A DNA stretch of 64,000 bases from the NCBI GenBank assembly GCA_963665165.1, contig OY761989.1, positions 1,903,734 to 1,967,733 of the forward strand, read 5' to 3'. The notes under the pieces are model-generated. The model ran no database searches. It worked only from the letters and a program-made list of their open reading frames with translations, and was not told the DNA's origin. This document shows positions 3,075 to 58,112 of the stretch, piece after piece. The translations under genes and the position numbers were made by a program. Source of the DNA: Arenicellales bacterium (GTDB lineage: Bacteria > Pseudomonadota > Gammaproteobacteria > Arenicellales > Poriferihabitantaceae). Numbering within the stretch: the stretch's first letter is position 1; the number at the start of each line of letters is the position of its first letter.

Positions 3075-3255
3075 CCCACAAAAATCGGCTTATTTGTGAG
3101 CCATTTGCAAAAACTTTTGTTCCGCTACACCCTGGAACAAACGTATCTTCGCCAGCGAGTGGCCGAGCGTCACCCTTTCCCGGTCACGGGCGTAGAGCGG
3201 GTTTCCAATGCGTATCGTTCCGAGTCGACAGATACTGAATCAAGGCGCAAATAAA

Positions 3256-4847: not shown

Positions 4848-5027
4848 TCAGCGCGATGTCGTATTCCAGATAATTTCAAAGGCTTCCGGGTCAATGCGGC
4901 GCAGCTTCTCTAGCTCTTCGTCGGTGTGTTCTTGATGCCAAGGTTATTTTTTAAAACACCATTGGGATCAATATAGGGGTCAGATGCCGCATCATACGGC
5001 CCGGCGTCCGGGTCACGCTGATACGGC
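4848..5027 (-). pseudogene. Fic-family toxin remnant (N-terminal ~60 codons, frameshifted, no HPFxxGNGR core)
   Basis: The reverse strand reads MPYQRDPDAGPYDAASDPYIDPNGVLKNNLGIKNT. After a frame change it reads DEEELEKLRRIDPEAFEIIWNTTSR then a stop. It overlaps the vbhA-like stop, as in vbhA-vbhT modules. Confidence 0.5.
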
Positions 5028-6617: not shown

Positions 6618-6631
6618 ATTGCATCAGGAAC

Positions 6632-6736
6632 ACCTGCCCGGATACACATCCTGATCAGGTCCGCTTCGAACTCAGCAAAGGTGGCTAGGATATTGAAAAA
6701 GAGCTTCCCCATGGAATCCGCGGGATCATAGACCGT
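6632..6736 (-). pseudogene. Serine recombinase (resolvase) internal fragment
   Basis: TVYDPADSMGKLFFNILATFAEFEADLIRMCIRAG matches the conserved resolvase block (G.l...i..a.AEFEr.lI.eR). No N-terminal catalytic Ser region or HTH is present. Confidence 0.6.
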
Positions 6737-14617: not shown

Positions 14618-15183
14618 TACTGCTTCCTGGAACTTTCCACGTACTTGTATAGGGTCAGCTTCGAAATGTGCATCATCTCACAGATCTGGTGACGGTGTAC
14701 TGTTTTTCATCGTAAAGTTTGACCTCCAGATCCTGCTTGTCCAGAACCAAAGCCTTGGGTCTGCCGCCCTTTCGTCCCCGCGCACGCGCTGCCTGCAGGC
14801 TCGCATTGGTTCTTTCTCGGATCAGATTGCGTTTGAACTCGGCCAGGGCGCCGAACAGGTAGAATACCAGCTTGCCGGTGCTGGACGAGGTATCGATGGA
14901 TCCATGCAGACTCTTCAGGCCGATGCCTAGAGATCCCAGCCTGCTCACCATTTCGATCAGATCCTGCAGTGACCGGTTCAAACGGTCGAGTCTCCAAACA
15001 GCAGGACATCGTCGGCTCTTGCGTACTCGAGCGCCGCCGCAAGGCCCGGACGGTCCGCTCTCGCTCCGCTGAGGTGATTTCGAATATCCGTTCGCAGCTG
15101 GCACCACGCAGCGCATCCTGCTGCAGGGACAGATTCTGATCGTCCGTCGAGATCCGCGCGTAGCTGATTAGCACCACTCGCAC
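14618..15183 (-). pseudogene. Serine recombinase (resolvase/invertase) gene disrupted by about three frameshifts
   Basis: The N-terminus VVLISYARISTDDQNLSLQQDALRGA.CERIF is in one frame. SGARADRPGLAAALEYARADDVLL is in a second frame. WRLDRLNRSLQDLIEMV...GALAEFKRNLIRERT...GRKGGRP is in a third frame. The HTH ICEMMHISKLTLYKYV is in a fourth frame. Confidence 0.8.
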
Positions 15184-45177: not shown

Positions 45178-45274
45178 CGGACAAATTTACCAACAAAACC
45201 CTATCGAATCCATTGCCGGTCGGTAGCTTGCCCAATACGGGTCATATATAATCCGCCCAACCATGTCCCGCACC

Positions 45275-45362
45275 GGAGAGTTGGCAGAGCGGTCGAATGC
45301 GGCGGTCTTGAAAACCGTTGACTGTAACAGGTCCGGGGGTTCGAATCCCTCACTCTCCGCCA
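45275..45362 (+). tRNA. tRNA-Ser (anticodon UGA), copy 1
   Basis: GGAGAGTTGGCAGAGCGGTCGAATGCGGCGGTCTTGAAAACCGTTGACTGTAACAGGTCCGGGGGTTCGAATCCCTCACTCTCCGCCA. It has a 7-bp acceptor stem, a long variable arm, anticodon loop CTTGAAA and well-paired stems. Confidence 0.9.
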
Positions 45363-45425
45363 CTAAACATTATAAAACAGGGTGTTACGTGTATAATACC
45401 CCAACGCTCGCAGCCCGTTAGCTCC

Positions 45426-46985
45426 ATGAGACCGCCCGGCTTTACGCAAACACAGTTCGACTACGCTCTTGCCGCTATGATCCAGAGCGTCTCTGAATCC
45501 GGGGGGGCGCGGTGTCGCGTCGTCGCCCGAGACCTTCATCGAGCGGTCGTGGGCGCCAGCCAGCCGAACCGCATGCCGATGGCCTGCAACGCCATGTGGA
45601 AACTGGCCGAGGATCTGCCCCATACCGTTGTCCACCGTACGCCCAGCGGTCGTTCCAGTTCGCTGGAGATCGAATACCACCTTGACGGGGAGACGATCAC
45701 TGCGGCGCCACCGAGCTCGAGTCGGCGCGTTTCGCAACCACGACTAGGGCCGACCTCGACGCCGCGGTCGCCAACGTCACAGGGAGTTGTCGCCCCTGGA
45801 CGGCGGCGCGATGCCGAACTGCCCGACGCCGACCTTTACCTCGTGGCTTGCGTGAAGCGCAAGGCAAGCGCCACCATGCCAGCGAGGGAACTCTATACGT
45901 CCAGTTGGTTCCAGAGGGCACGTGCATGCGTCGAGAGGACGGGGCAGCCCTGGGCGGTTCTGTCCGCCAAGCACGGCCTTCTCTGGCCGACCGACACCGT
46001 CGCCCCGTATGAAATGACGCTCCGATCAATGTCCGGGCTGGAACGACGTCAATGGGCCGACACCGTGCTTGCTTCCTTAGCCCCGCACCTCGCCGGTGTC
46101 CGTACGATCACCATACTCGCCGGCACCACGTACCGCAAATTGCTGGTGCCAGAATTGGAAAGGCGCGACATCGAAGTCCTGGTGCCAATGGAAGGCCTTT
46201 CCCAAGGCAGACAACTCCAGTGGCTGGACATTTGCCTGACCCGCGCCCGCGCCGACGAACGGACCTCGCGGTCCCGCGTACCGCAGCCTGCCAGCGAACG
46301 GCTCGACCATCTGCGGCGCTTCTATGACTGCCTCGCGGATCTTGAGATGCGCCTCGGCGGCACACGAAAGCTGTCGGAATGCTCGAGCCATCTGTCCTGG
46401 CCCGCGCGCGGAGTCTACTTTTTCATGGAGCCCGGCGAGACCAGGTTCTATTCCGGTTCAGGACTCCGCGTTGTCCGCGTGGGCACCCACGGCTTGAAGC
46501 CCGGCGCGAGATCCACCCTTTGGAAGCGGCTGGTGCAGCACCGTGGAACGACCGCAGGCGGAGGCAACCATCGCACATCGATTTTCAGACTCCTTGTAGG
46601 CGCCGCCCTTATCGCGAGGGACAGATTCGACTGCCCATCATGGAACAACACGGGAAGCGCCCACCAGTGGAAGGAAGCGTGGGAATCACCCGTGGAACAC
46701 GCCGTCAGTGCCGTCATCGGCTCCATGCCCTTCCTCTGGCTCGATGTCCCGGACGAGCCAGGACACGACAGCCTTCGCGGCTACATCGAACGCAACGCAA
46801 TCGCCCTGTTGAGCAATCGCTGCCTACGACCCTTGGACCCGCAATCCGACGGTTGGCTCGGGCGCTACTGCGACCGGGAGAAGGTGCGAACGTCGGGACT
46901 ATGGAACTCCAACCATGTGGACAAGGAATACGATCCGGATTTCCTCCAAGCGATGGAGCGCCTTGCCGGGCAGGTGACCGCATGA
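45426..46985 (+). CDS. Three-module protein: N-terminal small domain, DUF6884/YaaA-like domain, and GIY-YIG-superfamily nuclease-like domain
   Basis: The start was moved to the first ATG after the tRNA. The N-terminal module shows DLHRAVVG..NRMPMACNAM...LEIEYHL. The middle module shows PARELYTSSWF...WAVLSAKHGLLWPTDTVAPYEMTL...LAGTTYRKLL...GLSQGRQLQWL. The C-terminal module shows GVYFFMEPGE...VRVGTH...LWKRLVQHRG...GNHRTSIFR...IERNAIALLS. Confidence 0.65.
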   Translation: MRPPGFTQTQFDYALAAMIQSVSESGGARCRVVARDLHRAVVGASQPNRMPMACNAMWKLAEDLPHTVVHRTPSGRSSSLEIEYHLDGETITAAPPSSSRRVSQPRLGPTSTPRSPTSQGVVAPGRRRDAELPDADLYLVACVKRKASATMPARELYTSSWFQRARACVERTGQPWAVLSAKHGLLWPTDTVAPYEMTLRSMSGLERRQWADTVLASLAPHLAGVRTITILAGTTYRKLLVPELERRDIEVLVPMEGLSQGRQLQWLDICLTRARADERTSRSRVPQPASERLDHLRRFYDCLADLEMRLGGTRKLSECSSHLSWPARGVYFFMEPGETRFYSGSGLRVVRVGTHGLKPGARSTLWKRLVQHRGTTAGGGNHRTSIFRLLVGAALIARDRFDCPSWNNTGSAHQWKEAWESPVEHAVSAVIGSMPFLWLDVPDEPGHDSLRGYIERNAIALLSNRCLRPLDPQSDGWLGRYCDREKVRTSGLWNSNHVDKEYDPDFLQAMERLAGQVTA

Positions 46986-48061
46986 GCGTGCTGTTCGTGA
47001 CGACCTGTTCTCTGACCAAGGCGGCCGGCGGCAAAGGCATGTTCGACCCGGAGACAGTCGTTTCCGGCTTGGCTCCCCACCACGCCGAATTGTTGGCCGC
47101 CAGGCGCGAAGAGGTCCGCGAACTCGTCAAGGGCGGCAACGCTTCAGACTGGCAGGGGGTTCCGCTCAAGGACCTCGACTACAATCGCGAACTCGTCAAG
47201 GGCGTCGAGTTCGGCGGCAGAAAGAACGCCGCCTACATGCCCGCACTCGACCGTTACCAAGGCCGGTTCTTCCAAGCGCTTGGGGACATCGGCAAGGCGC
47301 GTTGCCGCTCAAACGACAACCTGTTGATCATGTCTGGCCTCTACGGTCTCCTGAAAGCCAAAGAGCCCATGCAACTCTACAGTTGCCCCCTGTCGGCGGA
47401 CATCGCTGCGCTCTGGCAGCGCGACAGCCTGCTTACTGACATTGTCCGCGCCTACATCCACCGCAACGGAGTCCTTCGCGTAATTGATCTGACAGCGATG
47501 GACGCCTATCGCCGTCTGATCGACTGGTCCCGCATCGCTTCCCCCCGCGTCGAAATCCTGCACTGTTTCGACTCGATGGCCGCGGGAGAGAGCGCCTTGA
47601 CGTCATTCGGTAGGCTATTCCGGTACCTGACCTTCCTGGGCGATGACGAGCTGATTGACCTGGATCCCGAACATCCGCACGAAGAGTTCGGCACCTGCCG
47701 CCTCCACCGCTCCGCGGAACCGCCGAGCGACTACCCGGTCGAGACATGGCAGTCGCAACACGTGGCGGAGGTGCTAGGCGGCGGCAATCCCCAAACCGAA
47801 CCATGGCAATTCACCATGACGAACCAGTTCAAAAGGGAAGCGAGAACCGACTTCCAAGCCACACTACGCGCTGCCGTCGACATATGCAACGCGCCAATGT
47901 CGCCACGCGGCGACACCGTCAAGCCTCTTTCCGCGAACAATGATCGCTGTTGGCGCTATAGGCTGCACAAGCGCCGACTCGTATACGAGCCCGATCCGGT
48001 TCGGCGCGTAGTCCGCTTCCTCCGGTTCGAGCCGAGGGACCGCGCCTACAAGGACCAGTGA
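46982..48061 (+). CDS. YaaA(DUF328)/DUF6884-like domain fused to a C-terminal RelE/ParE-like toxin domain
   Basis: The ATG at 46982 overlaps the upstream stop (ATGA). The N-terminal module shows FVTTCSLTK...PALDRYQGRFF...LLIMSGLYGLLKAKEPMQLYSCPL. The C-terminal module shows FTMTNQFKREAR...VKPLSANNDRCWRYRLHKRRLVYEPD..RVVRFLRFEPRDRAY. Confidence 0.65.
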   Translation: MSVLFVTTCSLTKAAGGKGMFDPETVVSGLAPHHAELLAARREEVRELVKGGNASDWQGVPLKDLDYNRELVKGVEFGGRKNAAYMPALDRYQGRFFQALGDIGKARCRSNDNLLIMSGLYGLLKAKEPMQLYSCPLSADIAALWQRDSLLTDIVRAYIHRNGVLRVIDLTAMDAYRRLIDWSRIASPRVEILHCFDSMAAGESALTSFGRLFRYLTFLGDDELIDLDPEHPHEEFGTCRLHRSAEPPSDYPVETWQSQHVAEVLGGGNPQTEPWQFTMTNQFKREARTDFQATLRAAVDICNAPMSPRGDTVKPLSANNDRCWRYRLHKRRLVYEPDPVRRVVRFLRFEPRDRAYKDQ

Positions 48062-48246
48062 TCCGCGCGACCCGAACGTTGAACGCGGCCGCACCGCGTG
48101 TAAGGTGATGCACCAAGTCCATCGCCCTCGACGATCAGCTTCGACTGACGGTGAACAAAAGTCTTTGTAAACCCCATATAAACCGGGATCAGGTGGGATG
48201 AAGTGGGACAAGTGGCTGATATTACGAGCGAATACGTCAATAACTG

Positions 48247-48585
48247 TCAACCACAACCGGAATCATCGCTGAGAGAAAGTTTTTGCAAATCCAGGGTGAA
48301 GTGGCATTTACAGAGCAAAAAGACACAATCGACAGAAGGCAACAGGGAGACCCGACCATCCTCCATCTCCTGTACGGTTTATCGTTCAGTGTCTGGATGC
48401 TGATCGGAAATGCCCAGGTGCAGGACCTCGCTGCATTGACCGCTCAGACAGGCCATCGCCGCCCAATAGGGATATTTCCGGCCACCGATGATATAGACAA
48501 TGCCCGTTGCCGGCGTTGCGGGTAAATCCTCGACCCATTGAGCGGCGTATCTCATTGGTCCCGCTCTATGACTTGCCCCATTCAC
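48247..48585 (-). pseudogene. DUF6527-like gene relic (in-frame stop, eroded Cys motif)
   Basis: The reverse strand reads GIVYIIGGRKYPYWAAMACLSGQCSEVLHLGISDQHPDTER*TVQEMEDGRVSLLPSVD....CKCHFTLDL. This resembles the DUF6527 layout (...CPCGCG...P.W...dg.vtL.PSi...C.sHF) as I remember it. Confidence 0.35.
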
Positions 48586-48660
48586 CGGACCGGATTATTT
48601 ACAGTTTCAGGTAACAGGTTTTTCGGTGACACCCTACATTGCAACACTTGGGACAATCCA

Positions 48661-48900
48661 ATGAGTACCAGAACAGTTCGGCTCGACGAGGATGCGGAAG
48701 CAACACTGAAGATACTGCAAAAACAGACGGGGATGTCTATAACAACAAAACCTTATGATATTTACCGCAAACTTGACTTGGGGCCGGGTGACGAGAGTGT
48801 GTCCGCTGCCCTGATGGAACTCATTTCCAAAACAGCCCCGTCCAGAACAACCTCAGGGAGTTATCCCTTCGACGCCATTTGCGGACACAGACCACTGTGA
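48661..48900 (+). pseudogene. Ribbon-helix-helix antitoxin relic (internally deleted), no intact partner toxin
   Basis: MSTRTVRLDEDAEATLKILQKQTGMSI (RHH strand-helix) jumps directly to PYDIYRKLDLGPGD (C-terminal block of VapB-type RHH antitoxins). The second helix seems to be missing and no PIN or other toxin ORF follows. Confidence 0.4.
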
Positions 48901-48972
48901 CAACCTGGCCGCTTGATGCAGTTTAATTCAATTACGATTGCATAAAGCATCGAAAAATGATACTTTACGTGA

Positions 48973-49776
48973 ATGAAATCGAATATTCGTCCGCTACGCG
49001 CCAGGGACTACATCAACGATCTTGCCGCCTCCGGGCGCTATCACTTCTCGTCGAGTGACGCTCGTCAAGCCCTTGGCGTGTCCGCTGAGGCGACCAGACT
49101 GGCGCTGAACCGGCTGGCCCGGAAAAACAGGATCGCGCAGCCAGCGCGAGGTTTCCATGTAATCCTTCCGCCGGAGTACCGCTCTTTGGGATGCCTGCCG
49201 CCAGACCAGTTCATTGCGGCGTTGATGCAACGGCTTCGGCAACCGTACTATGTCGGGCTGCTGTCAGCCGCGCAGTATTACGGCGCTGCCCATCACCGGC
49301 CGCAGGAATTTCAGGTGCTGCTCGAAAAGGCGCGCCGACCTATCCGCTGTGGCCAAGTGCGAACTATGTTCATCGTCCGAAGGCAGCTTCAGCAGGTTTC
49401 CGTGCAGAGCTTCAACACGCCCCGGGGCACGATCCATATCTCGACCCCGGAAGCGACGGCGGTTGATCTCGCAGGTTATTGCCATCGTGCAGGAGGGATT
49501 GATCAAGTGGCAACTGTTCTGTTCGAACTTGCAGAGCAGATTGATCCACAGAAACTGGTGGCAGCCGCGCAAACTGCTCCTGTTACATGGGCGCAAAGGC
49601 TTGGATACCTGTTCGAGCGTATCTCTGCCTGCAAACAGGTCACTCTCCTCAAAGCCTATGTCAAGGATAAAGCCCGGCAAGCGGTTCCACTTGTCCCTGA
49701 GAATATCCATAAGAAAATGCCACGCGACCCGGATTGGAAGATTCTCGTCAACGCTGATATCGAGCCAGACCTTTGA
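48973..49776 (+). CDS. abiEi: AbiEi-family antitoxin/transcriptional regulator (type IV TA)
   Basis: An N-terminal wHTH (ATRLALNRLARKNRIAQPARGFHVILPPEY) is followed by the AbiEi_3/4-like YYVGLLSAAQYYGAAHH block. It overlaps the downstream NTase gene by 4 nt. Confidence 0.8.
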   Translation: MKSNIRPLRARDYINDLAASGRYHFSSSDARQALGVSAEATRLALNRLARKNRIAQPARGFHVILPPEYRSLGCLPPDQFIAALMQRLRQPYYVGLLSAAQYYGAAHHRPQEFQVLLEKARRPIRCGQVRTMFIVRRQLQQVSVQSFNTPRGTIHISTPEATAVDLAGYCHRAGGIDQVATVLFELAEQIDPQKLVAAAQTAPVTWAQRLGYLFERISACKQVTLLKAYVKDKARQAVPLVPENIHKKMPRDPDWKILVNADIEPDL

Positions 49777-50567
49777 TCCCGCACGACTACATAACGGAGT
49801 GGCGGGCTTATGCGCCCTGGGTGCAAGATTTTCAGGTAGAGCAGGATCTCGTCATCAGCCGGGCACTCATTGCAATTTTCGCCCACCCCTTTCTTGCAAA
49901 CACTCTGGCGTTCCGGGGTGGTACGGCGCTTTATAAACTTCACATTCATCCACCAGCCCGCTATTCCGAAGATATCGACCTTGTGCAGGTCAGGGCGGAG
50001 TCGGCCGGCCGAATGATGGACACGATACGGGAAGTTCTTGATCCCTGGCTTGGCAGACCACGATGGAAGCAGACCGAAGGTCGTGTGACTTTCGTCTACC
50101 GATTCCAGTCCGAAGATACGCCTCCACTACCACTCAGGCTCAAGGTGGAAATCAATTCGAGAGAACACTTTGCGGTATACGGATTAATTCAACGGCCATT
50201 CAGCGTCACCTCGCGCTGGTTTGAGGGGGAAGCGAAGATCACCACATATACGCTTGACGAGCTCATGGCGACGAAGTTTCGTGCCCTGTATCAGCGTCGG
50301 AAGGGCAGAGATTTGTTCGACCTGTTTATGGCCTTGGAAGAAACAGAACTCGACCCGAATCGGGTCATTACCGCTTTTTTGCAATACATGGCACATGGAG
50401 GCCACAATGTAACGCAAGACAAGTTCGAGCAGAATATCCGGGAAAAACTGCTTGATACCCGGTTCAACGCCGATATCGGTCCACTTCTAACTACAGAGTT
50501 CTCCTGGAATTCCCAGGATGCGATGAAGAGTATTCGCTCTCGACTGATCGCACGATTGCCGGAATGA
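49773..50567 (+). CDS. abiEii: AbiEii/AbiGii-family nucleotidyltransferase toxin (DUF1814)
   Basis: FRGGTALYKLHI...RYSEDIDLV (NTase motif), KVEINSREH and RGRDLFDL. Confidence 0.85.
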   Translation: MIPHDYITEWRAYAPWVQDFQVEQDLVISRALIAIFAHPFLANTLAFRGGTALYKLHIHPPARYSEDIDLVQVRAESAGRMMDTIREVLDPWLGRPRWKQTEGRVTFVYRFQSEDTPPLPLRLKVEINSREHFAVYGLIQRPFSVTSRWFEGEAKITTYTLDELMATKFRALYQRRKGRDLFDLFMALEETELDPNRVITAFLQYMAHGGHNVTQDKFEQNIREKLLDTRFNADIGPLLTTEFSWNSQDAMKSIRSRLIARLPE

Positions 50568-50786
50568 GTTGGAGATGCATGAAACAGCCTGTTGATCCAA
50601 AAACTCCAAGACAAAATCAGTACCTGATAGTTTTTCTCAATGAATGTATCTGGAAACGTACTGTACTATTCAAATGCTGGGAAGCAATGCAAAATCATTC
50701 AGGATAATTTTATCGGAATAACATCAAATGACGACACAATCTGATATTTTTCAAACTCTTTCGAAAGTAGCAATTGCACCTGCGCC

Positions 50787-50874
50787 GGAGAGTTGGCAGA
50801 GCGGTCGAATACGGTGATCTTGAAAACCGTTGACTGTAACAGGTTCGGGGGTTCGAATCCCCCACTCTCCGCCA
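50787..50874 (+). tRNA. tRNA-Ser(UGA)-like second copy (5 substitutions relative to copy 1; D-stem and anticodon-stem mismatches, possibly decaying)
   Basis: GGAGAGTTGGCAGAGCGGTCGAATACGGTGATCTTGAAAACCGTTGACTGTAACAGGTTCGGGGGTTCGAATCCCCCACTCTCCGCCA. It has the same length and anticodon as copy 1. By hand folding, C11/A24 and A30/C40 are mismatched. Confidence 0.6.
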
Positions 50875-51038
50875 CTACTTTTTATTAAGCCATTGAAGTT
50901 TTTAGAAAAGGATAGATTTTTTGTGTCATTGGAATTTTATTATTACTTTCAATATCATATTCTACGATTCGTTCCGACCAACGGGCGGCGAGTAACGACG
51001 GTCAAGACTGAAGCCTGTCCGACGTTAACAAATGACAT

Positions 51039-53159
51039 TTGGGGGAGCATATGCATGCAATAAAACGTTCATTTATGAACATAATCGAAGGCACCAAACA
51101 ATTTATCATTCCCGTCTTCCAGCGGGACTTCAGTTGGACCCGTGAGCAGTGCGAGCAATTGTGGCGTGATGTAAGACGTGCGAATGAGGGGGAAGTTGAT
51201 AGCGGACATTTCATGGGCTCAATCGTCTATATTGAGGCCGACCTTTCTAGCGCTGCTTTTCAAAGATGGTTGCTGATTGATGGACAACAGCGACTGACGA
51301 CATTGACGGTTCTCATGATCGCATTGCGCGACCACATCCAGGCAGTGTCTTGGTCTGGAAGCGATGACGGTCCTACAGCCGAAAGAATTAACGCATACTA
51401 CTTGAAGAATCTGCATGAGTCCGGGCAACGGCGGTACAAACTCATGCTGCGACGCAAAGACAATGCTACATTGCAAGCGCTGATTGACGGGGAGAGGACA
51501 ACCGACCTCGAAAACGAACACTCAGAGTTGCTCATCGACGCCTACGAGCTGTTCCTATCTAAGTTTCGAGAAACAGATTGTGACCCGGAAGATGTCTATC
51601 AAGGCATTGCCCGCTTGAACGTAGTTGACGTCACGCTTCGCCGAGGTGTCGATAACCCACAACTCGTATTCGAGAGCATGAATTCCACCGGGGTTAATTT
51701 GCGGCCAAGCGATCTAATTCGGAACTACCTCCTGATGGATCTGGGTGAATCGGAGCAGACCCAACTTTACGATAAGTATTGGAAAAAAATTGAGAGCCTG
51801 TTTCGATCATCGGGCGATGAGTTCGACAGCTTTCTGCGGGACTACATGGCGTTAGAGCAGGGTCATACTCGACAGATTCGTCTGGACCGCGTCTACGACG
51901 AGTTCAAGTCCTTCCGAAAACACGATAGTGGCAAGCCGATGGAGGTGTTGTTTGAGGACATGGTCCGGGTCGCTCGCACCTATGCATCGTTTCTTGGGAT
52001 CGCGCCAATGCAAGACTCACGGCTCGCGAATGCTATGAGCCATATGCGGTCATTGAACACGACGACCCCAAGGCTGTTAATCATGCGACTATACGACTAC
52101 CACGAAAAGGAGTCGCTATCTCAGGACGAGTTTGTCCGTGCTGTTGTGCTGATCGAGAGCTACCTGTTGCGCCGCGCCGTTCTCGGTTTGCAGACCCGTG
52201 GCTACTGGTCTGTCTTCGCCCGCATTGCACATGGTCTTAATCGCGAGTCCGTCTTCGAGTCGTTACAAGTCGAGTTCGCGCGGTTGAGGGACAACAATCG
52301 ATTTCCGAGTGACGAGGAATTCATGAGAGGATTGCAGGAACATAACCTGTATGGACTGCGTATCTGCAAGCACCTGCTGAACCGACTGGAAAACGCAGGA
52401 TATCAGGAGCCGAGCCCCGTCCATGACTACTCAATCGAGCACATCATGCCCGTAGATATCGCACAAACAACGGAGTGGCAGAACATGCTCGGAGAGAATT
52501 GGATGGAAGATCATGAGGTTTGGTTACACCGATTGGGCAACTTGACGCTGACGGCTTACAACAGCCGCTACTCCAATCGGCCGTTCGAGAAGAAAAAGAC
52601 TATAGAGGGTGGGTTCCGGCATAGCGCTGTCCGACTGAACGAGGATGTCAGAGATCAGGCGCAGTGGACCATTACGGAAATCGAAAACCGCGGGAACCGG
52701 TTGGCCACCCGTGCGCTTGCTGTATGGCCACCCCATGGAGCAGATGCAAAGAACATACAGGCGGCGGATATCCGCGATCTGAGGAAGCGTGCCGCAGAGC
52801 GAAACATTAGCGAGCTAGACATGGACGATGCAGTCCAAAATGTGCTCAATGGGATATTGTTATCCATTCGTGACTTGGTTGACGTCATTGAAGTGCTTGA
52901 GCACAAATCGGTTTGCTGTTATGGGCCAGATTTTTTCGCTGAACTGATACCGATGCGCCATTCAGTCAAAGTGATACTGCCACTACAGTTCAGTGAGGTC
53001 GAAATCCCTGAGGGGTTAGCTGTCCGTGATGCATCCACACAGAAATTCGTGGCGAATCGAGTACACACGGATAGTAACTTGATAGTAGAAGTTTCGGATA
53101 AGGCAGAAATCACGTCTGTTATGCGGATGATTCGCCAGTCTTTGGATCAGTCGCGGTAA
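51039..53159 (+). CDS. GmrSD-type DUF262 + DUF1524 protein (putative modification-dependent type IV restriction enzyme) with extra C-terminal domain
   Basis: The DUF262 part shows IPVFQRDFSW...GSIVYI...LLIDGQQRLTTL. The DUF1524 His-Me part shows YSIEHIMP...WLHRLGNLTLTAYNSRYSNRPF. An unassigned C-terminal region of ~170 aa follows. The start could be the ATG at 51051, which follows GGGGAG. Confidence 0.8.
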   Translation: MGEHMHAIKRSFMNIIEGTKQFIIPVFQRDFSWTREQCEQLWRDVRRANEGEVDSGHFMGSIVYIEADLSSAAFQRWLLIDGQQRLTTLTVLMIALRDHIQAVSWSGSDDGPTAERINAYYLKNLHESGQRRYKLMLRRKDNATLQALIDGERTTDLENEHSELLIDAYELFLSKFRETDCDPEDVYQGIARLNVVDVTLRRGVDNPQLVFESMNSTGVNLRPSDLIRNYLLMDLGESEQTQLYDKYWKKIESLFRSSGDEFDSFLRDYMALEQGHTRQIRLDRVYDEFKSFRKHDSGKPMEVLFEDMVRVARTYASFLGIAPMQDSRLANAMSHMRSLNTTTPRLLIMRLYDYHEKESLSQDEFVRAVVLIESYLLRRAVLGLQTRGYWSVFARIAHGLNRESVFESLQVEFARLRDNNRFPSDEEFMRGLQEHNLYGLRICKHLLNRLENAGYQEPSPVHDYSIEHIMPVDIAQTTEWQNMLGENWMEDHEVWLHRLGNLTLTAYNSRYSNRPFEKKKTIEGGFRHSAVRLNEDVRDQAQWTITEIENRGNRLATRALAVWPPHGADAKNIQAADIRDLRKRAAERNISELDMDDAVQNVLNGILLSIRDLVDVIEVLEHKSVCCYGPDFFAELIPMRHSVKVILPLQFSEVEIPEGLAVRDASTQKFVANRVHTDSNLIVEVSDKAEITSVMRMIRQSLDQSR

Positions 53160-53601
53160 CGGCTTGTAATCGGCAGTGTCTCTACATTGGTCAATGCCGA
53201 AAAAACTTGTTGGTCGATAGAGGAAGGTCGTGCCACTCGTATCCTGCTCCACCGTAGTGGATGGTTTCGACGCTGATCTCGCGTTGCCCTGACATTACCA
53301 ACGAACTCCGCCGTTCTTCAACTATACTCGTGCAATATGTGGGCTAGGCTGTGTACTTCTTGCCGTCGTAGCCCAAGTCCACTGTGGGCGCTCTTCCACA
53401 GCCCAACCGAGTAGGTCAACGTAATTCTGGCTGCGTGGGCAAAGAACCGCAAATTTTCCGCTTCACCGAAAGTCGGATCCGCAACTTGTATGACTCCATT
53501 TTGTGTGCGAAGGTGGCTTCCGGGAAGGATGTTTCCCATTTGCCATTGCCATCTTATTCTCTCCATAGCCTGGATTATGCCTCGATGAACCCGTGAAATC
53601 G

Positions 53602-54783
53602 TCAGGTTCCCTCAACTTTGTTTTTCAATATATTCGACATTAAGCTGGGGATGCCCGGTTCATAATAGTCCATGTCGTTATCTTCTCCACCAATTGTCTG
53701 CCAGATGAATCCGGTATGGTTAAAGGTTTCGAGAGCATACCGGACCGGTTCGTTTACAGTTCCGGGTAACGGGTTTTCCAGTAAAAACCCTTCGATTATT
53801 TTTTCGGCTGAAATCACCTGAATTTGCTCCTGTTGCAAAAAAGCGCCAGCCAGAGCTTCCGCAACGGGTAATAACCCGGCTTCCTTTATTTCCGTTTTTC
53901 GCGATTCATAGATCAAATTTCTTTGCAGGGCCACATCCTTTTCCACTGCCGCCACCATATCCATGGTAATTGTTTTGCTCCCGGTCTCAACCAGATTGCG
54001 GGAGAGAGCTTCGCCCCATTGTTGGATAAATACCGGATAACCCTGTGCGCGTACCACCGCCACTTCTTCCGCTACATCTGGAGAAAAACTGATATTCTGG
54101 TCGAGTAATGGTTTGCCAAGCGCTTCAACAGCGAACCGGTTCGATAACCGCCCCAGCGAAAAACAAGCGCATTTATCCCAAAAAGTTGAACTGGCTTTAC
54201 TGAATGTCACCTTGATATTTGGCGTTCCCGCCAGGACAAGCAAAAACTTGCAGCCTTCTCCACGAACATTCTGACTGGCGTTAAGCAATCCTTTGGCTAC
54301 TTCGGGGTCCAGTTCATGCGCTTCATCGATCATCAGCACAAACGGTTTCAGCCTGCATCGTTCCCTCAATATTTCGGTTTCATTCGTATAGATTCTGTCC
54401 TTGATGCCCGGAATACCCGCCTCAATGAAACCTGCGTCATGCTCTACCCTGATCCTGACCAGTTTGCTGATGGCATTGACCATGATTTTTATTCCCTTCT
54501 CGGTAACGCCGGAAACCAGCAGGCTCGTTAGCTGGCTTCTGTTTGAAATATCCGCCGGAGTTGTCCATAACAGGTCGATGCCCTGACCGTATTCTTCCCT
54601 GGTTTTCGACTCCAGATGACGAAGCAGGGATGTCTTGCCGTTTCCACGCGGACCAAAGACAATAATACTGGCGCCAGGCGGTTTATCCGTAACCAGCCTT
54701 CGGATGGCTTTATTGTAATAGTCCTTCTCTTTTTCTCGCCCGGAAAACCAGGGAGGCTTTACGATTTCCCGACAACCCCTCAC
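53602..54783 (-). CDS. AAA+ ATPase (ORC/Cdc6-like 'ATP-binding protein'), orphan
   Basis: FSGREKEKDYYNKAI is followed by Walker A GPRGNGKTSLL, Walker B FVLMIDEAHEL and sensor-like LAGTPN. The only plausible start is the GTG at 54783, which overlaps the upstream TGA. The longer ORF to 55272 overlaps the ybdK-like gene out of frame. Composition is visibly more AT-rich than the upstream gene. Confidence 0.6.
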   Translation of the reverse strand: MRGCREIVKPPWFSGREKEKDYYNKAIRRLVTDKPPGASIIVFGPRGNGKTSLLRHLESKTREEYGQGIDLLWTTPADISNRSQLTSLLVSGVTEKGIKIMVNAISKLVRIRVEHDAGFIEAGIPGIKDRIYTNETEILRERCRLKPFVLMIDEAHELDPEVAKGLLNASQNVRGEGCKFLLVLAGTPNIKVTFSKASSTFWDKCACFSLGRLSNRFAVEALGKPLLDQNISFSPDVAEEVAVVRAQGYPVFIQQWGEALSRNLVETGSKTITMDMVAAVEKDVALQRNLIYESRKTEIKEAGLLPVAEALAGAFLQQEQIQVISAEKIIEGFLLENPLPGTVNEPVRYALETFNHTGFIWQTIGGEDNDMDYYEPGIPSLMSNILKNKVEGT

Positions 54784-55961
54784 GCAGCCTCGACTTCCGC
54801 CCGTGTTTCTGCGAGCAGCAGGTCGACTACGCGGCATAGCGCCTCTTCGTGGGTGTCCCCTTCCAGGCAGCGCAACTGGTAGAGGTCCAACTGGCGGTCC
54901 GCGCTGGTGCCCTCCCTGATGATGGTCATTGCGTAGCGCAGCTCGGGCTCGCACCCCAGCGCACGGGCATCGGCGGCCAGCTCTTCGATGAGTTCGGCAA
55001 GGTAGTCCTGGATATCGACCCTGGAGCCCGTTATTCGCCGGTCTCCGAAGAAGGAGAATACGCCATAGCGGTGTGCGTTCCAGCGATCCTCGGAGATCAG
55101 TTCGGTCAACGGTCCGGGTGTCAGGTCGCCGTCCCGGTCCCGGCGCAGCAGCCATCTGATCAGCGATGCATACAGCGCCGCCATGCTCACCGCGTCCTCC
55201 AATCGCGTACAGACATCGCAAATGCGCATCTCCACCGTCGGATACGCATGGGAAGGGCGGATGTCCCACCATAATTCGCTGCCATCCGTGACAAAATTGC
55301 AGCGCTGAAGTTCCGCCAGCAGCTTCTCATACTCTGCCGACGAGCCGAACGGGGCAGGCAGGCCGGATCGCGGGAGACTTCCAACGACGGTCATCCTCCA
55401 GGATTTGAATCCGGTCCCGCGCCCGTCGCTGAACGGCGAGGACGTCGACAGGGCAAGGAGCAACGGCAAGTACTGCCGGAGCGCCGTCATCACCCGAATG
55501 CGCGCATCCGCATCGCCGAACCCCGCATGGATGTGCATTCCGCCGATCAGAAAGCGGCGCAGATTATCCTGATGGGCGGCCACAAATTGTTCGTAGCGTT
55601 CCTTCGGCGTGGTTGACTGTACCTGCCACCGCGCAAACGGATGGGTGGAGGCAGCCATTACCGCGGCCCCGTACCGCTCTGCCGCCGAGATGATAATGCG
55701 TCGGGTCTCGATCAAAGCCTCGCGCAGTTCGGCGACCGACTCACACACTCTGGTATTGCTTTCGATCTGGGAGCGCATCAACTCCCGCACAATCTTGTGC
55801 GGCCCGCATGTCTTTTCGCAGGTTTCGAAGATGCCCGGGTCGGGGTCAATGAGAAGGTCACGGGTCTGCGGGTCCACCAGAAAGCACTCTTCCTCGACTC
55901 CGAGCGTGATCTTCAGGTCATCGTGGTCCCCTGTCGTCGTCATCGGTTCAATCGGGTTCAT
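54780..55961 (-). CDS. Carboxylate-amine ligase, YbdK/GCS2 family
   Basis: LGVEEECFLVDPQT, GMHIHAG and WWDIRPSHAYPTVEMRICD are GCS2 (glutamate-cysteine ligase family 2) signatures. Confidence 0.85.
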   Translation of the reverse strand: MNPIEPMTTTGDHDDLKITLGVEEECFLVDPQTRDLLIDPDPGIFETCEKTCGPHKIVRELMRSQIESNTRVCESVAELREALIETRRIIISAAERYGAAVMAASTHPFARWQVQSTTPKERYEQFVAAHQDNLRRFLIGGMHIHAGFGDADARIRVMTALRQYLPLLLALSTSSPFSDGRGTGFKSWRMTVVGSLPRSGLPAPFGSSAEYEKLLAELQRCNFVTDGSELWWDIRPSHAYPTVEMRICDVCTRLEDAVSMAALYASLIRWLLRRDRDGDLTPGPLTELISEDRWNAHRYGVFSFFGDRRITGSRVDIQDYLAELIEELAADARALGCEPELRYAMTIIREGTSADRQLDLYQLRCLEGDTHEEALCRVVDLLLAETRAEVEAA

Positions 55962-55977: not shown

Positions 55978-57591
55978 TCAGGTCAGCGAAGCAACAATTT
56001 CGGGCGCCATGCGCAGGGTCAACGCGACGATCGTGAGCGTGGGGTTCGCAGTCGATGACGTAGGAAAAGCGCCGGCGCCCATTACAAACAGATTGCGGTG
56101 ATCGTGGCAGCGCCCGAACGGGTCAACCACAGAGGTGTCGGGGTTATTGCCCATTCGACAGGTTCCCATAAGATGCCCCGCCCCTTCAAATTGGTCTCGA
56201 TGCTGGACTTGCGACGCATTCATTTTCTGAAATATTTCGTTGTGCATGGTTCTTGCGCCGGACAAGGCGGACAAGGTGTACTCATCGACCCGATAGTGAA
56301 TTCGGGGCAGTGGAACGCCGTAACGGTCGTGGTCGGTTGAATCCAGGGAAATCCGGTTTTCGGGATCGGGCAGTTGTTCGCCCATTGAAGCCAGTTGTAA
56401 TTCCCGCGAAGAAATTTCAGTCACTTTGTTACGCAATTGCCGTCCCCGGTATCCCTGTTTCGAGAGAGATTGCGCCAACGTAAGCAACCCACCGGTTGGC
56501 CATGACCAGCCATCCGCGCTGATTTGAGTCCGTACTGATGCCTGAACGCTACGTTGCGGGCCATCCCTGAGGTTTTCTATGCCAGATGTCGATATGGGCC
56601 CGCGATAAGGCCATACAGGGTCCTTCGCCAACGCCCAGCTTAACTGAAGCGGATGATCCATCAGGTTCCGCCCCACTTGATCCGACCGGTTCGCCACGCC
56701 ATTGGGCAATGTGGACGATTGCGAATGCAGGAGCAGGCGCGGCGTTTCAACCGCGTTTGCGGCGAGGACATAAATTTGACCGGTGGCTTTACCGGATGAA
56801 CCGTCCGGCCGTCGAAACCGGATTCCTGTGATGTTCAGATCGGAATCGGTCTCCACAAAAGTCGCATTGGTCTTTTCATAGACTGCAGCCCCGTTTTTCT
56901 CGGCACGGCCAAGATGCACCGTAGCGTCATATTTGGCGCCCACCGGACAAATCGGGATACAACTTGCGCTGCCGCAACAGGCCGGTCGGCCATCAAAATT
57001 TGTCGAATTCCTGGCTTGCGGCGTTGCCTCCACCCGGTATCGGGTATTTTCCAATGCCTTTACATACGCCTTGTCCAGATATGACAGCGGAATCTCTTTC
57101 ATCGGAAAATGGCCGGAGCGCGGCGAACCCTGGTCCTGACCGGAGTCGCCGGCCACTGCCAGTTCGTGTTCGGCTTGCAGATAATAAGGCTCCAGATCCT
57201 GATAACTGATCGGCCAATCCACCGCCTGACCGTGTACGCTGTTCATCCTGAAATCATTGGGAACGAACCGGACCGTCGTGCCAAGCCAATGCCATGAAGT
57301 GCCGCCGACCGCCTTCAGATAGGTGCTCTTGAATGGATCGGGACCGGACTGGCGATACCAGATTCCGGGATTATGCGCCAGGGGAAACTCGACTTCTTCG
57401 GATGTGACATAAGGGCTTTCAGGCACCTTGATGAGCGCTTTCCGGAAGCGTTTCAGCGCTTCGTTGCGGTCAATGCGAGGCCCGGCTTCCAGAACGGCGA
57501 CGCGGATTCCCCGGGCAGACAGTTTTTCGGCGAGAATGGAACCGACGAAGCCGGAGCCGACAATGACAACCTGGGCGTTAATGGCGCTCAT
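55978..57591 (-). CDS. GMC-family FAD oxidoreductase (gluconate 2-dehydrogenase flavoprotein-like)
   Basis: VVIVGSGFVGSILAEKL (GxGxxG), VLEAG, and the C-terminal GTCRMG...VVD...HD..NLFVMGAGAFPTS. Confidence 0.85.
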   Translation of the reverse strand: MSAINAQVVIVGSGFVGSILAEKLSARGIRVAVLEAGPRIDRNEALKRFRKALIKVPESPYVTSEEVEFPLAHNPGIWYRQSGPDPFKSTYLKAVGGTSWHWLGTTVRFVPNDFRMNSVHGQAVDWPISYQDLEPYYLQAEHELAVAGDSGQDQGSPRSGHFPMKEIPLSYLDKAYVKALENTRYRVEATPQARNSTNFDGRPACCGSASCIPICPVGAKYDATVHLGRAEKNGAAVYEKTNATFVETDSDLNITGIRFRRPDGSSGKATGQIYVLAANAVETPRLLLHSQSSTLPNGVANRSDQVGRNLMDHPLQLSWALAKDPVWPYRGPISTSGIENLRDGPQRSVQASVRTQISADGWSWPTGGLLTLAQSLSKQGYRGRQLRNKVTEISSRELQLASMGEQLPDPENRISLDSTDHDRYGVPLPRIHYRVDEYTLSALSGARTMHNEIFQKMNASQVQHRDQFEGAGHLMGTCRMGNNPDTSVVDPFGRCHDHRNLFVMGAGAFPTSSTANPTLTIVALTLRMAPEIVASLT

Positions 57592-57628
57592 GGGCCATTC
57601 CGGGATTTATGGATAATCCGGTTGGTCA

Positions 57629-58081
57629 TCACCCGGCAGCCAGCGCAAGTGTCCAGTCATCGGGAACCGTCGAACAAACCGTTTTCGGCGTTGCGAACCA
57701 GGCGGCCTTCCAGGCCAGCGCGTCCGTGTACGTATCGACGAATGGATCGTCATCAATCGCAATGACACCGCCATACCAGGCCGTAATCACGACTTCAGCC
57801 AACTCGTCATCCACCGCCAGGGAAGAATCTTCCAGCGCGGAACCAAGCGAATCCGAATGACCGGAAGCCATGATCCAGCCGAGCAATTGCCGCGCCCGGT
57901 CGGGATTCAGCTCCTGAACCTCGAATCCGGTCAGATTCGATGAAAGTTGAAGAAAGCGGTCAACCTCCCCGGCGCTGGCTGAACCGGCAAAAATATCCGC
58001 TGACACCAGAACCGGCATCGCGCTAATGGCTGTCAGGAACTTTCGCCGAGAGACGCCGGGGTCATCTGTCGTCTGTGTCAT
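57629..58081 (-). CDS. Gluconate 2-dehydrogenase subunit 3-like small subunit with Tat signal
   Basis: The start is taken at MTQTTDDPGVSRRKFLTAISAMPVL (twin-arginine motif SRRKFL). It lies upstream of the GMC flavoprotein, as in membrane dehydrogenase operons. Confidence 0.7.
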   Translation of the reverse strand: MTQTTDDPGVSRRKFLTAISAMPVLVSADIFAGSASAGEVDRFLQLSSNLTGFEVQELNPDRARQLLGWIMASGHSDSLGSALEDSSLAVDDELAEVVITAWYGGVIAIDDDPFVDTYTDALAWKAAWFATPKTVCSTVPDDWTLALAAG

Positions 58082-58112
58082 CAATGGAATTCCGCTTGCC
58101 GATACCGCCTGA

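Follow-up and report, generated by a model that had tools for sequence, protein, structure and literature searches.

The 64,000 nt stretch of DNA analysed here (the window) comes from an Arenicellales genome (G000) and contains two ARAGORN calls for tRNA-Ser(tga), at positions 45275–45362 and 50787–50874, both on the + strand. The two 88 nt sequences (copy 1 and copy 2) differ by five substitutions, each of which is a transition, i.e. 25 G>A, 29 C>T, 31 G>A, 59 C>T and 76 T>C from copy 1 to copy 2 (raw positions). The gene calls and the alignment agree with the initial annotation on this repeat. That annotation also had the similarity end almost exactly at the tRNA borders. More precisely, 9 nt of 5′ leader and the three nt (CTA) after CCA are repeated as well, and the limits of the full repeat are therefore 50778–50877 versus 45266–45365, a length of 100 nt with 92 of 100 positions identical. 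The copy 2 leader, ACCTGCGCC, is identical at eight of nine positions to the genus form, ACCTGCACC, and is closer to it than the copy 1 leader is. The repeat has a BLAST E-value of 1e-33 within the genome, which is far beyond chance. A 23-mer from the tRNA 3′ end has no further match across the window, and the genome contains no other Ser(UGA) gene and no Ser(CGA) gene.

The comparison set consists of seven congeners (G001–G007), each another species. A promoter/leader block directly upstream of copy 1 (45205–45274, + strand) aligns in all seven, and a direct reading of its sequence places TATAAT at 45247–45252. Copy 1 gives 57.3 bits with the Rfam tRNA model. Because it is 100% identical to the gene in nine relatives (G001–G007, G019 and G020) and has kept the conserved upstream block, copy 1 is the native gene, and is by its sequence the only intact and single working Ser(UGA) gene of the genome.

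Copy 2 gives 40.2 bits with the same model, compared with 55.0–61.9 bits for 20 native genes of relatives, and scores 15–22 bits below all 21 native genes. It displays non-standard pairs in the D stem (C11·A25) and in the anticodon stem (A31·C41, raw numbering), and a G-C pair in the T stem where copy 1 has its one G·U. All five changes are in stems: two break pairs, two give G·U and one gives G-C, which is what unselected transitions would be expected to do. None of the five variants is found in any of the 20 relatives, and the copy 2 variant is absent from the metagenome and viral contigs searched. The conserved promoter block is missing upstream of copy 2 except for its last 9 nt. The stem mismatches, and with them the choice of copy 2 as the weaker copy, had been recognized previously and are borne out by the Rfam model; the two copies are not equally functional paralogues with unrelated flanks. 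Copy 2, with its 9 nt leader and CTA, appears to be a redundant, promoterless and decaying duplicate, i.e. a candidate pseudogene (pseudo-tRNA) and an internal junction scar.

A role of copy 2 as an additional functional tRNA-Ser(UGA) gene, retained for dosage, seems very unlikely. The sequence is still called as a tRNA by ARAGORN and exceeds the Rfam threshold, no change affects its loops, acceptor stem, long variable arm or anticodon, its T stem is perfect, and read-through transcription is possible as there is no terminator-like site from abiEii to copy 2. However its score lies below those of 21 of 21 native genes by the margin given above, the C·A and A·C mismatches affect pairs that are invariant in the 20 relatives, and the promoter block conserved in the genus is gone. 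In addition, one copy suffices in six of the seven congeners, and the extra copies of the seventh are degenerate (37.7 and 30.1 bits).

The DNA between the two copies (island A) starts with a cassette of two genes. The first (45426–46985, + strand) displays a DUF6884 and a GIY-YIG-like domain (PF21818, E-value = 2e-43). It is a PADLOC PDC-M57 candidate system in which the A and B parts are fused (PDC-M57B, E-value = 1.9e-82; PDC-M57A, E-value = 1.1e-31), with a GC content of 61–67% versus 55.7% for the genome. The second gene (46982–48061, + strand), whose start overlaps the stop of the first in the sequence ATGA, has a YaaA/DUF6884-like domain (PF03883, E-value = 5e-7) and a RelE/ParE-like tail seen in the translation, the RelE-like assignment being by eye only. 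A relic zone follows at 48062–48930. Its open reading frames show no family matches. Positions 48584–48634 are a 51 nt fragment derived from the 3′ end of the AAA gene described below (78% identical to 53739–53789); BLAST aligns this relic to the AAA gene of G006 over 41 nt (87.8%, E-value = 7e-7). AbiEi (48973–49776) and AbiEii (49773–50567), both on the + strand and detected by Pfam and PADLOC, form a toxin-antitoxin (TA)/abortive-infection module that recurs in this slot throughout the genus. The module is 83–88% identical in nt sequence to those at the same locus in G001, G002, G004 and G006, with varying order and orientation. An AT-rich spacer (50568–50777, approximately 41%–45% GC) extends up to the left junction of the repeat. 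BLAST gives no homologue in relatives for its part from about 50652 onward, and no terminator-like site was found on its + strand.

The AbiEii nucleotidyltransferase is encoded 220 nt upstream of copy 2, no terminator is predicted in the interval, and copy 2 could be viewed as a functional RNA tied to AbiE, e.g. a decoy, sensor or substrate tRNA for AbiEii. AbiEii is a pyrimidine-specific nucleotidyltransferase (bioRxiv 10.64898/2026.01.19.700257), and its relative MenT3, a DUF1814 toxin of the AbiEii family, targets tRNA-Ser and extends its 3′ end (PMC11541572). Five of eight congeners have AbiE at their tRNA-Ser locus. However, outside the genus a tRNA is found at a distance of 4 kb or less in 17 of 78 AbiEii loci and is a tRNA-Ser in only two; this is about the share given by chance, which argues against such a role. 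L057, the sole locus of similar appearance, carries an ordinary native tRNA, and its spacer shows no homology. AbiE occurs among the congeners in either orientation with no second copy of the tRNA, and the copy 2 changes look random. The proposal is considered highly improbable.

Downstream of copy 2, positions 51039–53159 (+ strand) encode a GmrSD-type (DUF262/DUF1524) type IV restriction enzyme (Pfam, PADLOC). This is a self-contained module of about 50993–53185, over which it is 82% identical in nt sequence to metagenome contigs; these matches are in unrelated contexts with no tRNA near. The next gene (53602–54783, − strand) encodes an AAA (ORC/Cdc6-like) ATPase (Pfam AAA_22/AAA_16) that is truncated at its 5′ end. 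Comparison of the junction with G002 and G006, where the gene is intact, together with the translation, shows the loss of approximately 27 codons and of the gene's own promoter, and the GTG start overlaps the stop codon of GCS2. GCS2 (54780–55961, − strand; PF04107) is a YbdK-like carboxylate-amine ligase. A GMC oxidoreductase gene (Pfam; 55978–57591, − strand) lies beyond it in a second variable slot; it has no match in any congener locus and is at this position only in the genome studied. Conserved synteny restarts at about 58090. The initial annotation ended the foreign stretch at about 54.78 kb, whereas the synteny map puts the right border at about 58.1 kb. The gene content it gave, i.e. 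a YaaA-like/GIY-YIG/RelE-like cassette, relics, AbiE, GmrSD and AAA, is upheld by Pfam and PADLOC.

GCS2 had also been taken as a core flank. The gene is semi-conserved, lies inside the variable region, is missing at the G002 locus and has a different C-terminal tail in each species. The GCS2 sequences of G006 and G007 are 97.3% identical with a flank identity of 84.3%, and those of the genome studied and G007 are 76.8% identical with flank identities of 88%–90%. GCS2 is thus discordant with its flanks, which is due to interspecies recombination, and the supposed core flank has itself been exchanged between species.

Comparison of the locus with relatives shows both empty sites and alternative cargo. 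In G007 and G003 the site is empty and the tRNA 3′ end is 28–36 nt from the GCS2 stop. Different cargo is present in G001, G002, G004, G005 and G006 (AbiE, Uzume, HipBA, MazF, PDC-S44, methylase/SNF2), with AbiE alone in the G001 slot. In G006 the AAA gene is inverted and AbiE is found on the far side of GCS2, and in G004 it is AbiE that is inverted. The locus studied holds both the truncated AAA gene and the AAA relic. The two tRNA copies and the genes between them are therefore not a conserved core, and the slot that follows the tRNA is a genus-wide, chronically variable defence/TA hotspot in this Arenicellales genus, as had been surmised. The successive accretion proposed earlier is also in keeping with the cargo, a mosaic whose modules each have their own composition and history. 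AbiE and AAA however are long-term residents of the slot across the genus rather than the cargo of one incoming island. Copy 2 marks an internal junction of this 12.7 kb defence/TA mosaic (45363 to about 58090). Overall, the locus probably represents a native gene and a decaying scar copy in a recombining defence hotspot. As an anti-phage/toxin-antitoxin patchwork at a spot that differs among related uncultured, marine-type Arenicellales, it would be a clear but fairly ordinary recombination scar in a tRNA-linked defence hotspot.

No tyrosine or serine recombinase is found in 45.3–54.8 kb, in agreement with the initial annotation, which saw neither integrase nor excisionase there. In all eight genomes the locus is free of PF00589 and PF00239 matches, i.e. 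an integrase or resolvase is absent, and in 33 further relatives none of the PF00589 matches listed is an integrase adjoining this tRNA; the neighbour in G020 is the housekeeping Xer. Traces of past integration are seen in relatives. In G004 the tRNA 3′ end is repeated (18/19) and the ancestral post-tRNA flank comes next, and G006 and G002 have 3′-end repeats of 19/22 and 19/19. These classical repeats of 19–22 nt start in the T-loop, and site-specific integration therefore did occur at this tRNA in the genus. The three extra full-length tRNA copies in the genus have the same 3′ limit and differing 5′ limits, i.e. −9 in the genome studied, about −57 to −86 in G002:C3 and about −100 to −130 in G002_b.

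The main alternative for the origin of the repeat is an integrase scar. Island A would have been an element whose attP carried a full-length tRNA-Ser (−9 to +3), and a tyrosine integrase crossover inside the gene would have left attL (copy 1) and attR (copy 2). Deletion would later have removed the integrase gene, and the 5′ part that copy 2 took from the element would never have been under selection. The end of the repeat coincides exactly with that of the tRNA on the 3′ side, like an integrase att identity block, the att-like repeats of G004, G006 and G002 prove that integrases acted at this site, and identity segments that span the entire tRNA are reported for some integrating elements (PMC2853133); these three points also speak against the splicing set out below. 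Four of the five differences are 5′ of the T-loop and the last 12 nt plus CTA are identical. tRNA genes are also common landing sites in defence hotspots (PMC10250203, PMC10121019). However no integrase is present at the locus in eight genomes or, among the matches listed, beside this tRNA in the further relatives, and the scars of relatives are only 19–22 nt from the T-loop start, so that an integrase scar here would need a different type of element. Island A is a mosaic that includes genus residents of the slot (AbiE and the AAA relic), the extra copies of G002 have 57–130 nt of promoter flank, unlike a fixed attP, the change at position 76 falls in the supposedly native part, and no viral or metagenome contig carries the copy 2 variant. 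A whole-tRNA duplication by integration, as first annotated, is possible but doubtful: nothing ties the repeat to an integrase, and the 5′ limits vary.

We infer the following sequence of events and type of recombination. The slot may have been seeded by integrase-type elements aimed at the T-loop-to-3′-end part of the tRNA, with all recombinases later lost, and its present turnover would be by recombination among related genomes together with deletions and inversions. A resident tRNA that already had GmrSD and the AAA gene downstream would have received congener DNA (left flank, promoter, tRNA and island A from the PDC-M57 cassette to AbiE) that entered by homologous crossing over in the left flank and was joined illegitimately at its other end, 9 nt upstream of the resident gene. 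This displaced tRNA, now copy 2, would have lost its promoter and then gained five transitions. Such splicing of promoter, tRNA and island A just upstream of the resident tRNA is the likeliest origin, with about an even chance of being correct. The fixed 3′ and variable 5′ limits of the extra copies fit recombinational splicing better than an integrase. A donor or intermediate layout, i.e. tRNA next to GmrSD or tRNA next to PDC-M57, is found in none of the seven congeners.

The process would be a homology-facilitated illegitimate recombination, with the same outcome as an “insertion with long target duplication”. This type of recombination was reportedly described in naturally transformable bacteria by de Vries and Wackernagel in 2002 and by Prudhomme et al. 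in 2002, and is proposed here from the sequence. As in those systems, homology would anchor one side only with an arbitrary join on the other, and the 5′ limits of extra tRNA copies would therefore vary.

The locus shares several properties with tRNA-targeting genomic islands bounded by attL–attR repeats (Williams 2002, as cited in PMC10250203 and PMC10121019). Insertion is exactly at the tRNA 3′ end with a tRNA direct repeat at the far end, relatives have the empty site, composition is atypical, modules are stacked, and congeners retain the classical 19–22 nt repeats. In contrast to such islands, no integrase or excisionase is left in eight genomes, the repeat takes in the entire gene and 9 nt of leader, and what lies between the copies is not a single element but a mosaic of modules resident at this locus. 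Furuta, Abe and Kobayashi (2010; PMC2853133) described defence-gene insertions with long variable target duplications and no mobility genes. The insert here is likewise less than 20 kb with defence genes and without mobility genes, and its flanking direct repeat is longer than 30 bp and single-copy in the empty genome. However it is not one restriction-modification unit, its downstream repeat has decayed by 8%, and the target that was duplicated is a tRNA gene, taken in that study as a sign of site-specific recombination.

A further parallel is seen in the core defence hotspots cDHS1/2 of Pseudomonas aeruginosa (Johnson et al. 2023; PMC10250203) and those of E. coli (Hochhauser et al. 2023; PMC10121019). 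These also display conserved core flanks that include one tRNA, highly variable defence cargo and some instances without identifiable means of mobilisation, and transfer by homologous recombination in the flanks has been proposed for them (PMC10250203, PMC10121019). They were defined in one species with hundreds of genomes, whereas the present set is eight species-level MAGs of an uncultured genus. The slot here is small (0–13 kb) and can be fully empty; the hotspots of P. aeruginosa, in contrast, are reported to be occupied nearly always.

ARAGORN predicts two tRNA-Ser(tga) genes on the plus strand of the window, copy 1 at positions 45275–45362 and copy 2 at 50787–50874. The 2.47-Mb genome (G000, 55.7% GC) has no further Ser(UGA) gene, and a search of all of it found no Ser(CGA) gene. 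The copies differ at five positions and all five differences are transitions; in a plain position count, from copy 1 to copy 2, they are 25 G>A, 29 C>T, 31 G>A, 59 C>T and 76 T>C. With the Rfam tRNA model copy 1 scores 57.3 bits and copy 2 scores 40.2 bits. Both G>A changes break stem pairs in copy 2; the model displays these as non-standard, with C.A for the D stem and A.C for the anticodon stem. G.U pairs result from the two C>T changes, and T>C converts a G.U of the copy 1 T stem to G-C. This is the pattern to be expected of unselected transitions in stems. The initial annotation described these differences and mismatches accurately, as judged by the ARAGORN positions and the Rfam pairs, and was nearly right in confining the similarity to the tRNA borders. 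The repeat is 100 nt long (92 positions identical), as it includes a 9-nt 5′ leader and the CTA that is 3′ of the CCA. The leader reads ACCTGCGCC at copy 2 and ACCTGCACC in the congeners G007 and G004. ARAGORN lists only 36 tRNA genes in G000, tRNA-Arg(UCG) among them; tRNA-Thr(UGU) and tRNA-Arg(UCU or CCU) were not detected in the whole genome. This set could be due to an incomplete assembly, to missed genes or to an unusual decoding set.

Copy 1 is 100% identical to the single tRNA-Ser(UGA) of seven same-genus genomes (G001–G007, each a different species) and to that of two other genera. Upstream of it, 70 nt or more of sequence with a TATAAT box are kept across the genus; at copy 2 this block is missing beyond position −9. 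A consensus promoter scan gives no promoter on the plus strand upstream of copy 2, but the same scan also misses the promoter of copy 1, and copy 2 may be transcribed by read-through from abiE. None of the tRNA-Ser(UGA) sequences of 20 family- and order-level relatives has any of the five copy 2 variants. The positions mismatched in the copy 2 stems are invariant in these 20 sequences, and the changes that do occur among them are compensatory pairs or lie in the variable arm only. The native genes of the 20 relatives score 55.0–61.9 bits, thus copy 2 at 40.2 bits is an outlier by at least 15 bits. From the missing promoter block, the absence of its variants in relatives and the low score, it is concluded that copy 2 is most probably a decaying duplicate. 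ARAGORN does report copy 2 as a tRNA gene, and a second working tRNA-Ser(UGA) paralogue would be the alternative prediction, but copy 2 does not have the standard-pair cloverleaf of a functional paralogue and this prediction appears very unlikely.

Copy 2 retains the genus-type bases T7 and C16, so its source was a gene of the genus type rather than a distant donor. A foreign tRNA carried in by the GC-rich cassette or by GmrSD is rejected on the basis of these two bases and because copy 2 has no variant that is seen among the 20 relatives. GmrSD is also rejected as the tRNA source, as its homologues (77%–79% aa and 82% nt identity) are found in unrelated contexts without a tRNA. The copy 2 variant is absent from the metagenome and viral contig collections searched; the native tRNA pattern occurs in metagenomes only on two short contigs, both of which end at the tRNA. 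At sites of this type even a full-length extra tRNA is not necessarily a functional paralogue or an att site, and tRNA gene counts from MAGs may therefore include decaying copies.

The region directly 3′ of tRNA-Ser is a defence and toxin-antitoxin hotspot, as its contents differ across the congeners (one genome was compared per species). The left flank ABCF-pgeF-tRNA-Ser is present in all seven. Of the seven loci fetched, five contain the right block, from ~58.1 kb of the window; in G004 and G006 it is rearranged or beyond the range retrieved. Foreign DNA begins 0–3 nt past the CCA, both in the window and in each congener whose slot is filled. The relatives display both the alternative cargo and the empty site that the initial annotation had suggested looking for at its proposed tRNA-Ser hotspot. 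G007 and G003 are empty, with the tRNA 3′ end 28–36 nt from the stop codon of GCS2, a YbdK-like gene (positions 54780–55961, minus strand, in the window). G001 has AbiE only. G004 has Uzume (UzuA), an inverted AbiE and HipBA; G005 has PDC-S44 (DUF429), transposase fragments and HipBA. In G006 there are a methylase, a ParB-like gene, SNF2 helicase and NOV_C genes, IS630 and an inverted AAA gene, and AbiE lies beyond GCS2. G002 has a MazF segment, Uzume, other genes, AAA and AbiE and is without GCS2. The window itself has the defence systems PDC-M57, AbiE and GmrSD. A core defence hotspot has conserved core flanks and defence systems that vary between genomes. These features are present here, and the locus behaves like the hotspots of this type in P. 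aeruginosa (PMC10250203) and E. coli (PMC10121019), which are flanked by a tRNA. An exact look-up of the pgeF protein found nothing.

Several further observations were made in the relatives. The UzuA-like gene that adjoins the tRNA in both G004 and G002 was considered as a hidden recombinase, but it is the Uzume defence protein; it also has no significant similarity to the GIY-YIG-like domain of the window and is rejected as its homologue. A second AbiE module is found elsewhere in G004, on contig_2 (locus L047), with 85% aa identity to the AbiEii of the window and no tRNA within 4 kb. In G001, a perfect 26-nt direct repeat, TCGCCCCGGCCATCCGTAGGGACAGG, flanks the AbiE module at positions 3116–3141 and 4923–4948 of the fetched locus L037. 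This repeat belongs to a hairpin directly 3′ of the tRNA and may be either att-like or the scar of an insertion. Genome-wide, its 17-nt core is present only at the hotspot, with two copies each in G001 and G005; there are two further single sites with one mismatch. The motif CCATCCGTAGGGACAGG is not a genome-wide REP element, as it is restricted to the hotspot of these two genomes apart from two one-mismatch single sites.

The cargo of the window starts with a two-gene cassette of 61%–67% GC. Its first gene (positions 45426–46985) encodes DUF6884 and a GIY-YIG-like domain; its PADLOC match is the candidate PDC-M57, with parts A and B fused. The second (46982–48061) is YaaA-like with a RelE-like tail and overlaps the first at ATGA. 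A relic zone 3′ of the cassette contains a 51-nt piece of the 3′ end of the AAA gene, and is followed by AbiEi and AbiEii, an AT-rich spacer and then the pseudo-tRNA. The GmrSD module is at positions 50993–53185, the limits being set by 82% nt identity to metagenome contigs, which are of unrelated context and tRNA-free; a GmrSD scan of the genome contigs found nothing. The AAA ATPase gene at 53602–54783 is truncated, i.e. it has lost ~27 first codons and the promoter relative to the G002 and G006 versions. Its start is a GTG that overlaps the GCS2 stop codon (GTGA), and the gene is now fused behind GCS2; in G006 it is inverted relative to GCS2. The slot may be a good hunting ground for new defence genes, e.g. 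the PDC-M57-like two-gene cassette and the orphan AAA ATPase, and unannotated open reading frames in the islands of relatives may be other candidates.

Recombination between species is visible directly inside the slot. This is seen from GCS2 identities that are at odds with those of the flanks and from the shuffling of modules, which recur among the congeners in differing order and orientation. The flanks of G000 are nearest to those of G007, with 88%–90% nt identity, but GCS2 of G000 has 76.8% identity with the G007 gene and 85%–86% with the genes of G001, G004 and G005. GCS2 of G006 and G007 (loci L034 and L040) shows 97.3% identity with flanks of 84.3%, which points to a recent transfer between these species. 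The C-terminal tail of GCS2 is different in every species.

Scars of integration are present in three congeners. G004 has an 18/19 copy of the last 19 nt of the tRNA at the far end of its island, followed by the ancestral post-tRNA flank as in G001. G006 has a 19/22 copy of the tRNA 3′ end, ...ACTCTCCGCCACTA, and G002 a 19/19 copy of tRNA nt 66–84. Thus integrases that target the segment from the T-loop to the 3′ end did act at this locus. No such 3′-fragment repeat was found near 54.8 or 58.1 kb of the window. The earlier statement that the tRNA-Ser region is without an integrase is upheld: whole-genome searches of all eight genomes for tyrosine and serine recombinases (PF00589 and PF00239) give no match at the locus, and Pfam analysis of all large open reading frames of the window shows no recombinase there. 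In 33 further relatives, no integrase is next to tRNA-Ser among the PF00589 matches listed; the one adjacent match, in G020, a more distant relative, is an orthologue of the housekeeping Xer, with 57% identity to the gene of G000. The genus presents a series from the empty site through classical integrase scars to recombinase-free mosaics. The window locus has its insert at the tRNA 3′ end, a distal tRNA repeat and an empty site in relatives, as in an integrase island, but lacks an integrase or recombinase gene inside the island. It differs in this from a bona fide integrative element and resembles decayed tRNA-linked islands.

Two further full-length copies of tRNA-Ser, which bear on how the whole-tRNA repeat arose, are present in G002 and are independent of copy 2 of the window. 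One (locus L039, G002:C1 14430–14516) is 2.4 kb downstream of the native gene, brackets the MazF segment and has the anticodon CGA. The other (locus L044, G002:C3 7000–7086) borders a different island elsewhere on the chromosome. The two copies carry 57–130 nt of promoter flank. With scores of 30.1 bits (the CGA copy) and 37.7 bits they are degenerate, and the former is thus rejected as a new Ser(CGA) isoacceptor formed by an anticodon shift. The three extra copies of the genus share a common 3′ limit (+0 to +3) but differ in the 5′ limit, which is at −9, at about −57 to −86 and at about −100 to −130. A variable 5′ limit with a fixed 3′ limit favors splicing, with one homologous and one arbitrary end, over a fixed attP. 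Recombinational splicing is given about an even chance of having made the repeat in the window. Incoming congener DNA would have consisted of left flank, promoter, tRNA and island A (the PDC-M57 cassette to AbiE), and the recipient would have had the resident allele tRNA-GmrSD-AAA. The right-hand join would be 9 nt upstream of the resident tRNA, which would then be promoterless and decay.

The main rival explanation is that the repeat was produced by an integrase whose attP covered the complete tRNA. The exact 3′ limit is consistent with this, and whole-tRNA identity blocks have been reported for some integrating elements (PMC2853133). A fixed attP would not yield the differing 5′ limits of the extra copies. 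Such an integrase is considered possible, though somewhat less likely than splicing. Recombinational splicing would have the same outcome at this locus as insertion with long target duplication, which is known for defence genes without mobility genes (PMC2853133). The 5.4-kb insert is below 20 kb, the 100-nt repeat is above 30 bp, mobility genes are absent, and the tRNA-Ser target is single-copy in the empty G007 and G003. Unlike that case, the insert is a PDC-M57-like cassette with relics and AbiE and is not one restriction-modification unit. The locus does not open a new mechanism; it is of a known kind, well resolved here, and is a small, clean case of the building and rebuilding of a tRNA-linked defence hotspot in an uncultured gammaproteobacterial genus (Arenicellales MAGs).

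The position of abiEii beside a tRNA-Ser look-alike is eye-catching because MenT3, a toxin of the AbiEii family, acts on tRNA-Ser (PMC11541572). By analogy, copy 2 might be transcribed by read-through from abiEii and provide AbiE with a substrate of the AbiEii nucleotidyltransferase that acts as decoy, buffer or sensor. If true, a tRNA-like RNA would be part of a toxin-antitoxin or abortive-infection system. Of 78 AbiEii loci from outside the genus, 17 have a tRNA within 4 kb, and only two of these have a tRNA-Ser, which does not support a specific link between AbiE and tRNA-Ser. Such a role for copy 2 is regarded as extremely improbable.

The foreign stretch had been taken to end at about 54.78 kb, but it extends further and synteny with relatives resumes at ~58.09 kb. 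A GMC oxidoreductase gene is at positions 55978–57591, a location where none of the seven congeners has it. Positions 55978–58090, from GCS2 to the conserved block, are a second variable slot, which in G007 is filled by 4.5 kb of other DNA. A serine recombinase (resolvase, PF00239) is present as fragments in two frames at window positions 14769–15168 and 6629–6736, about 30 kb upstream of the tRNA-Ser locus and near another defence cluster.
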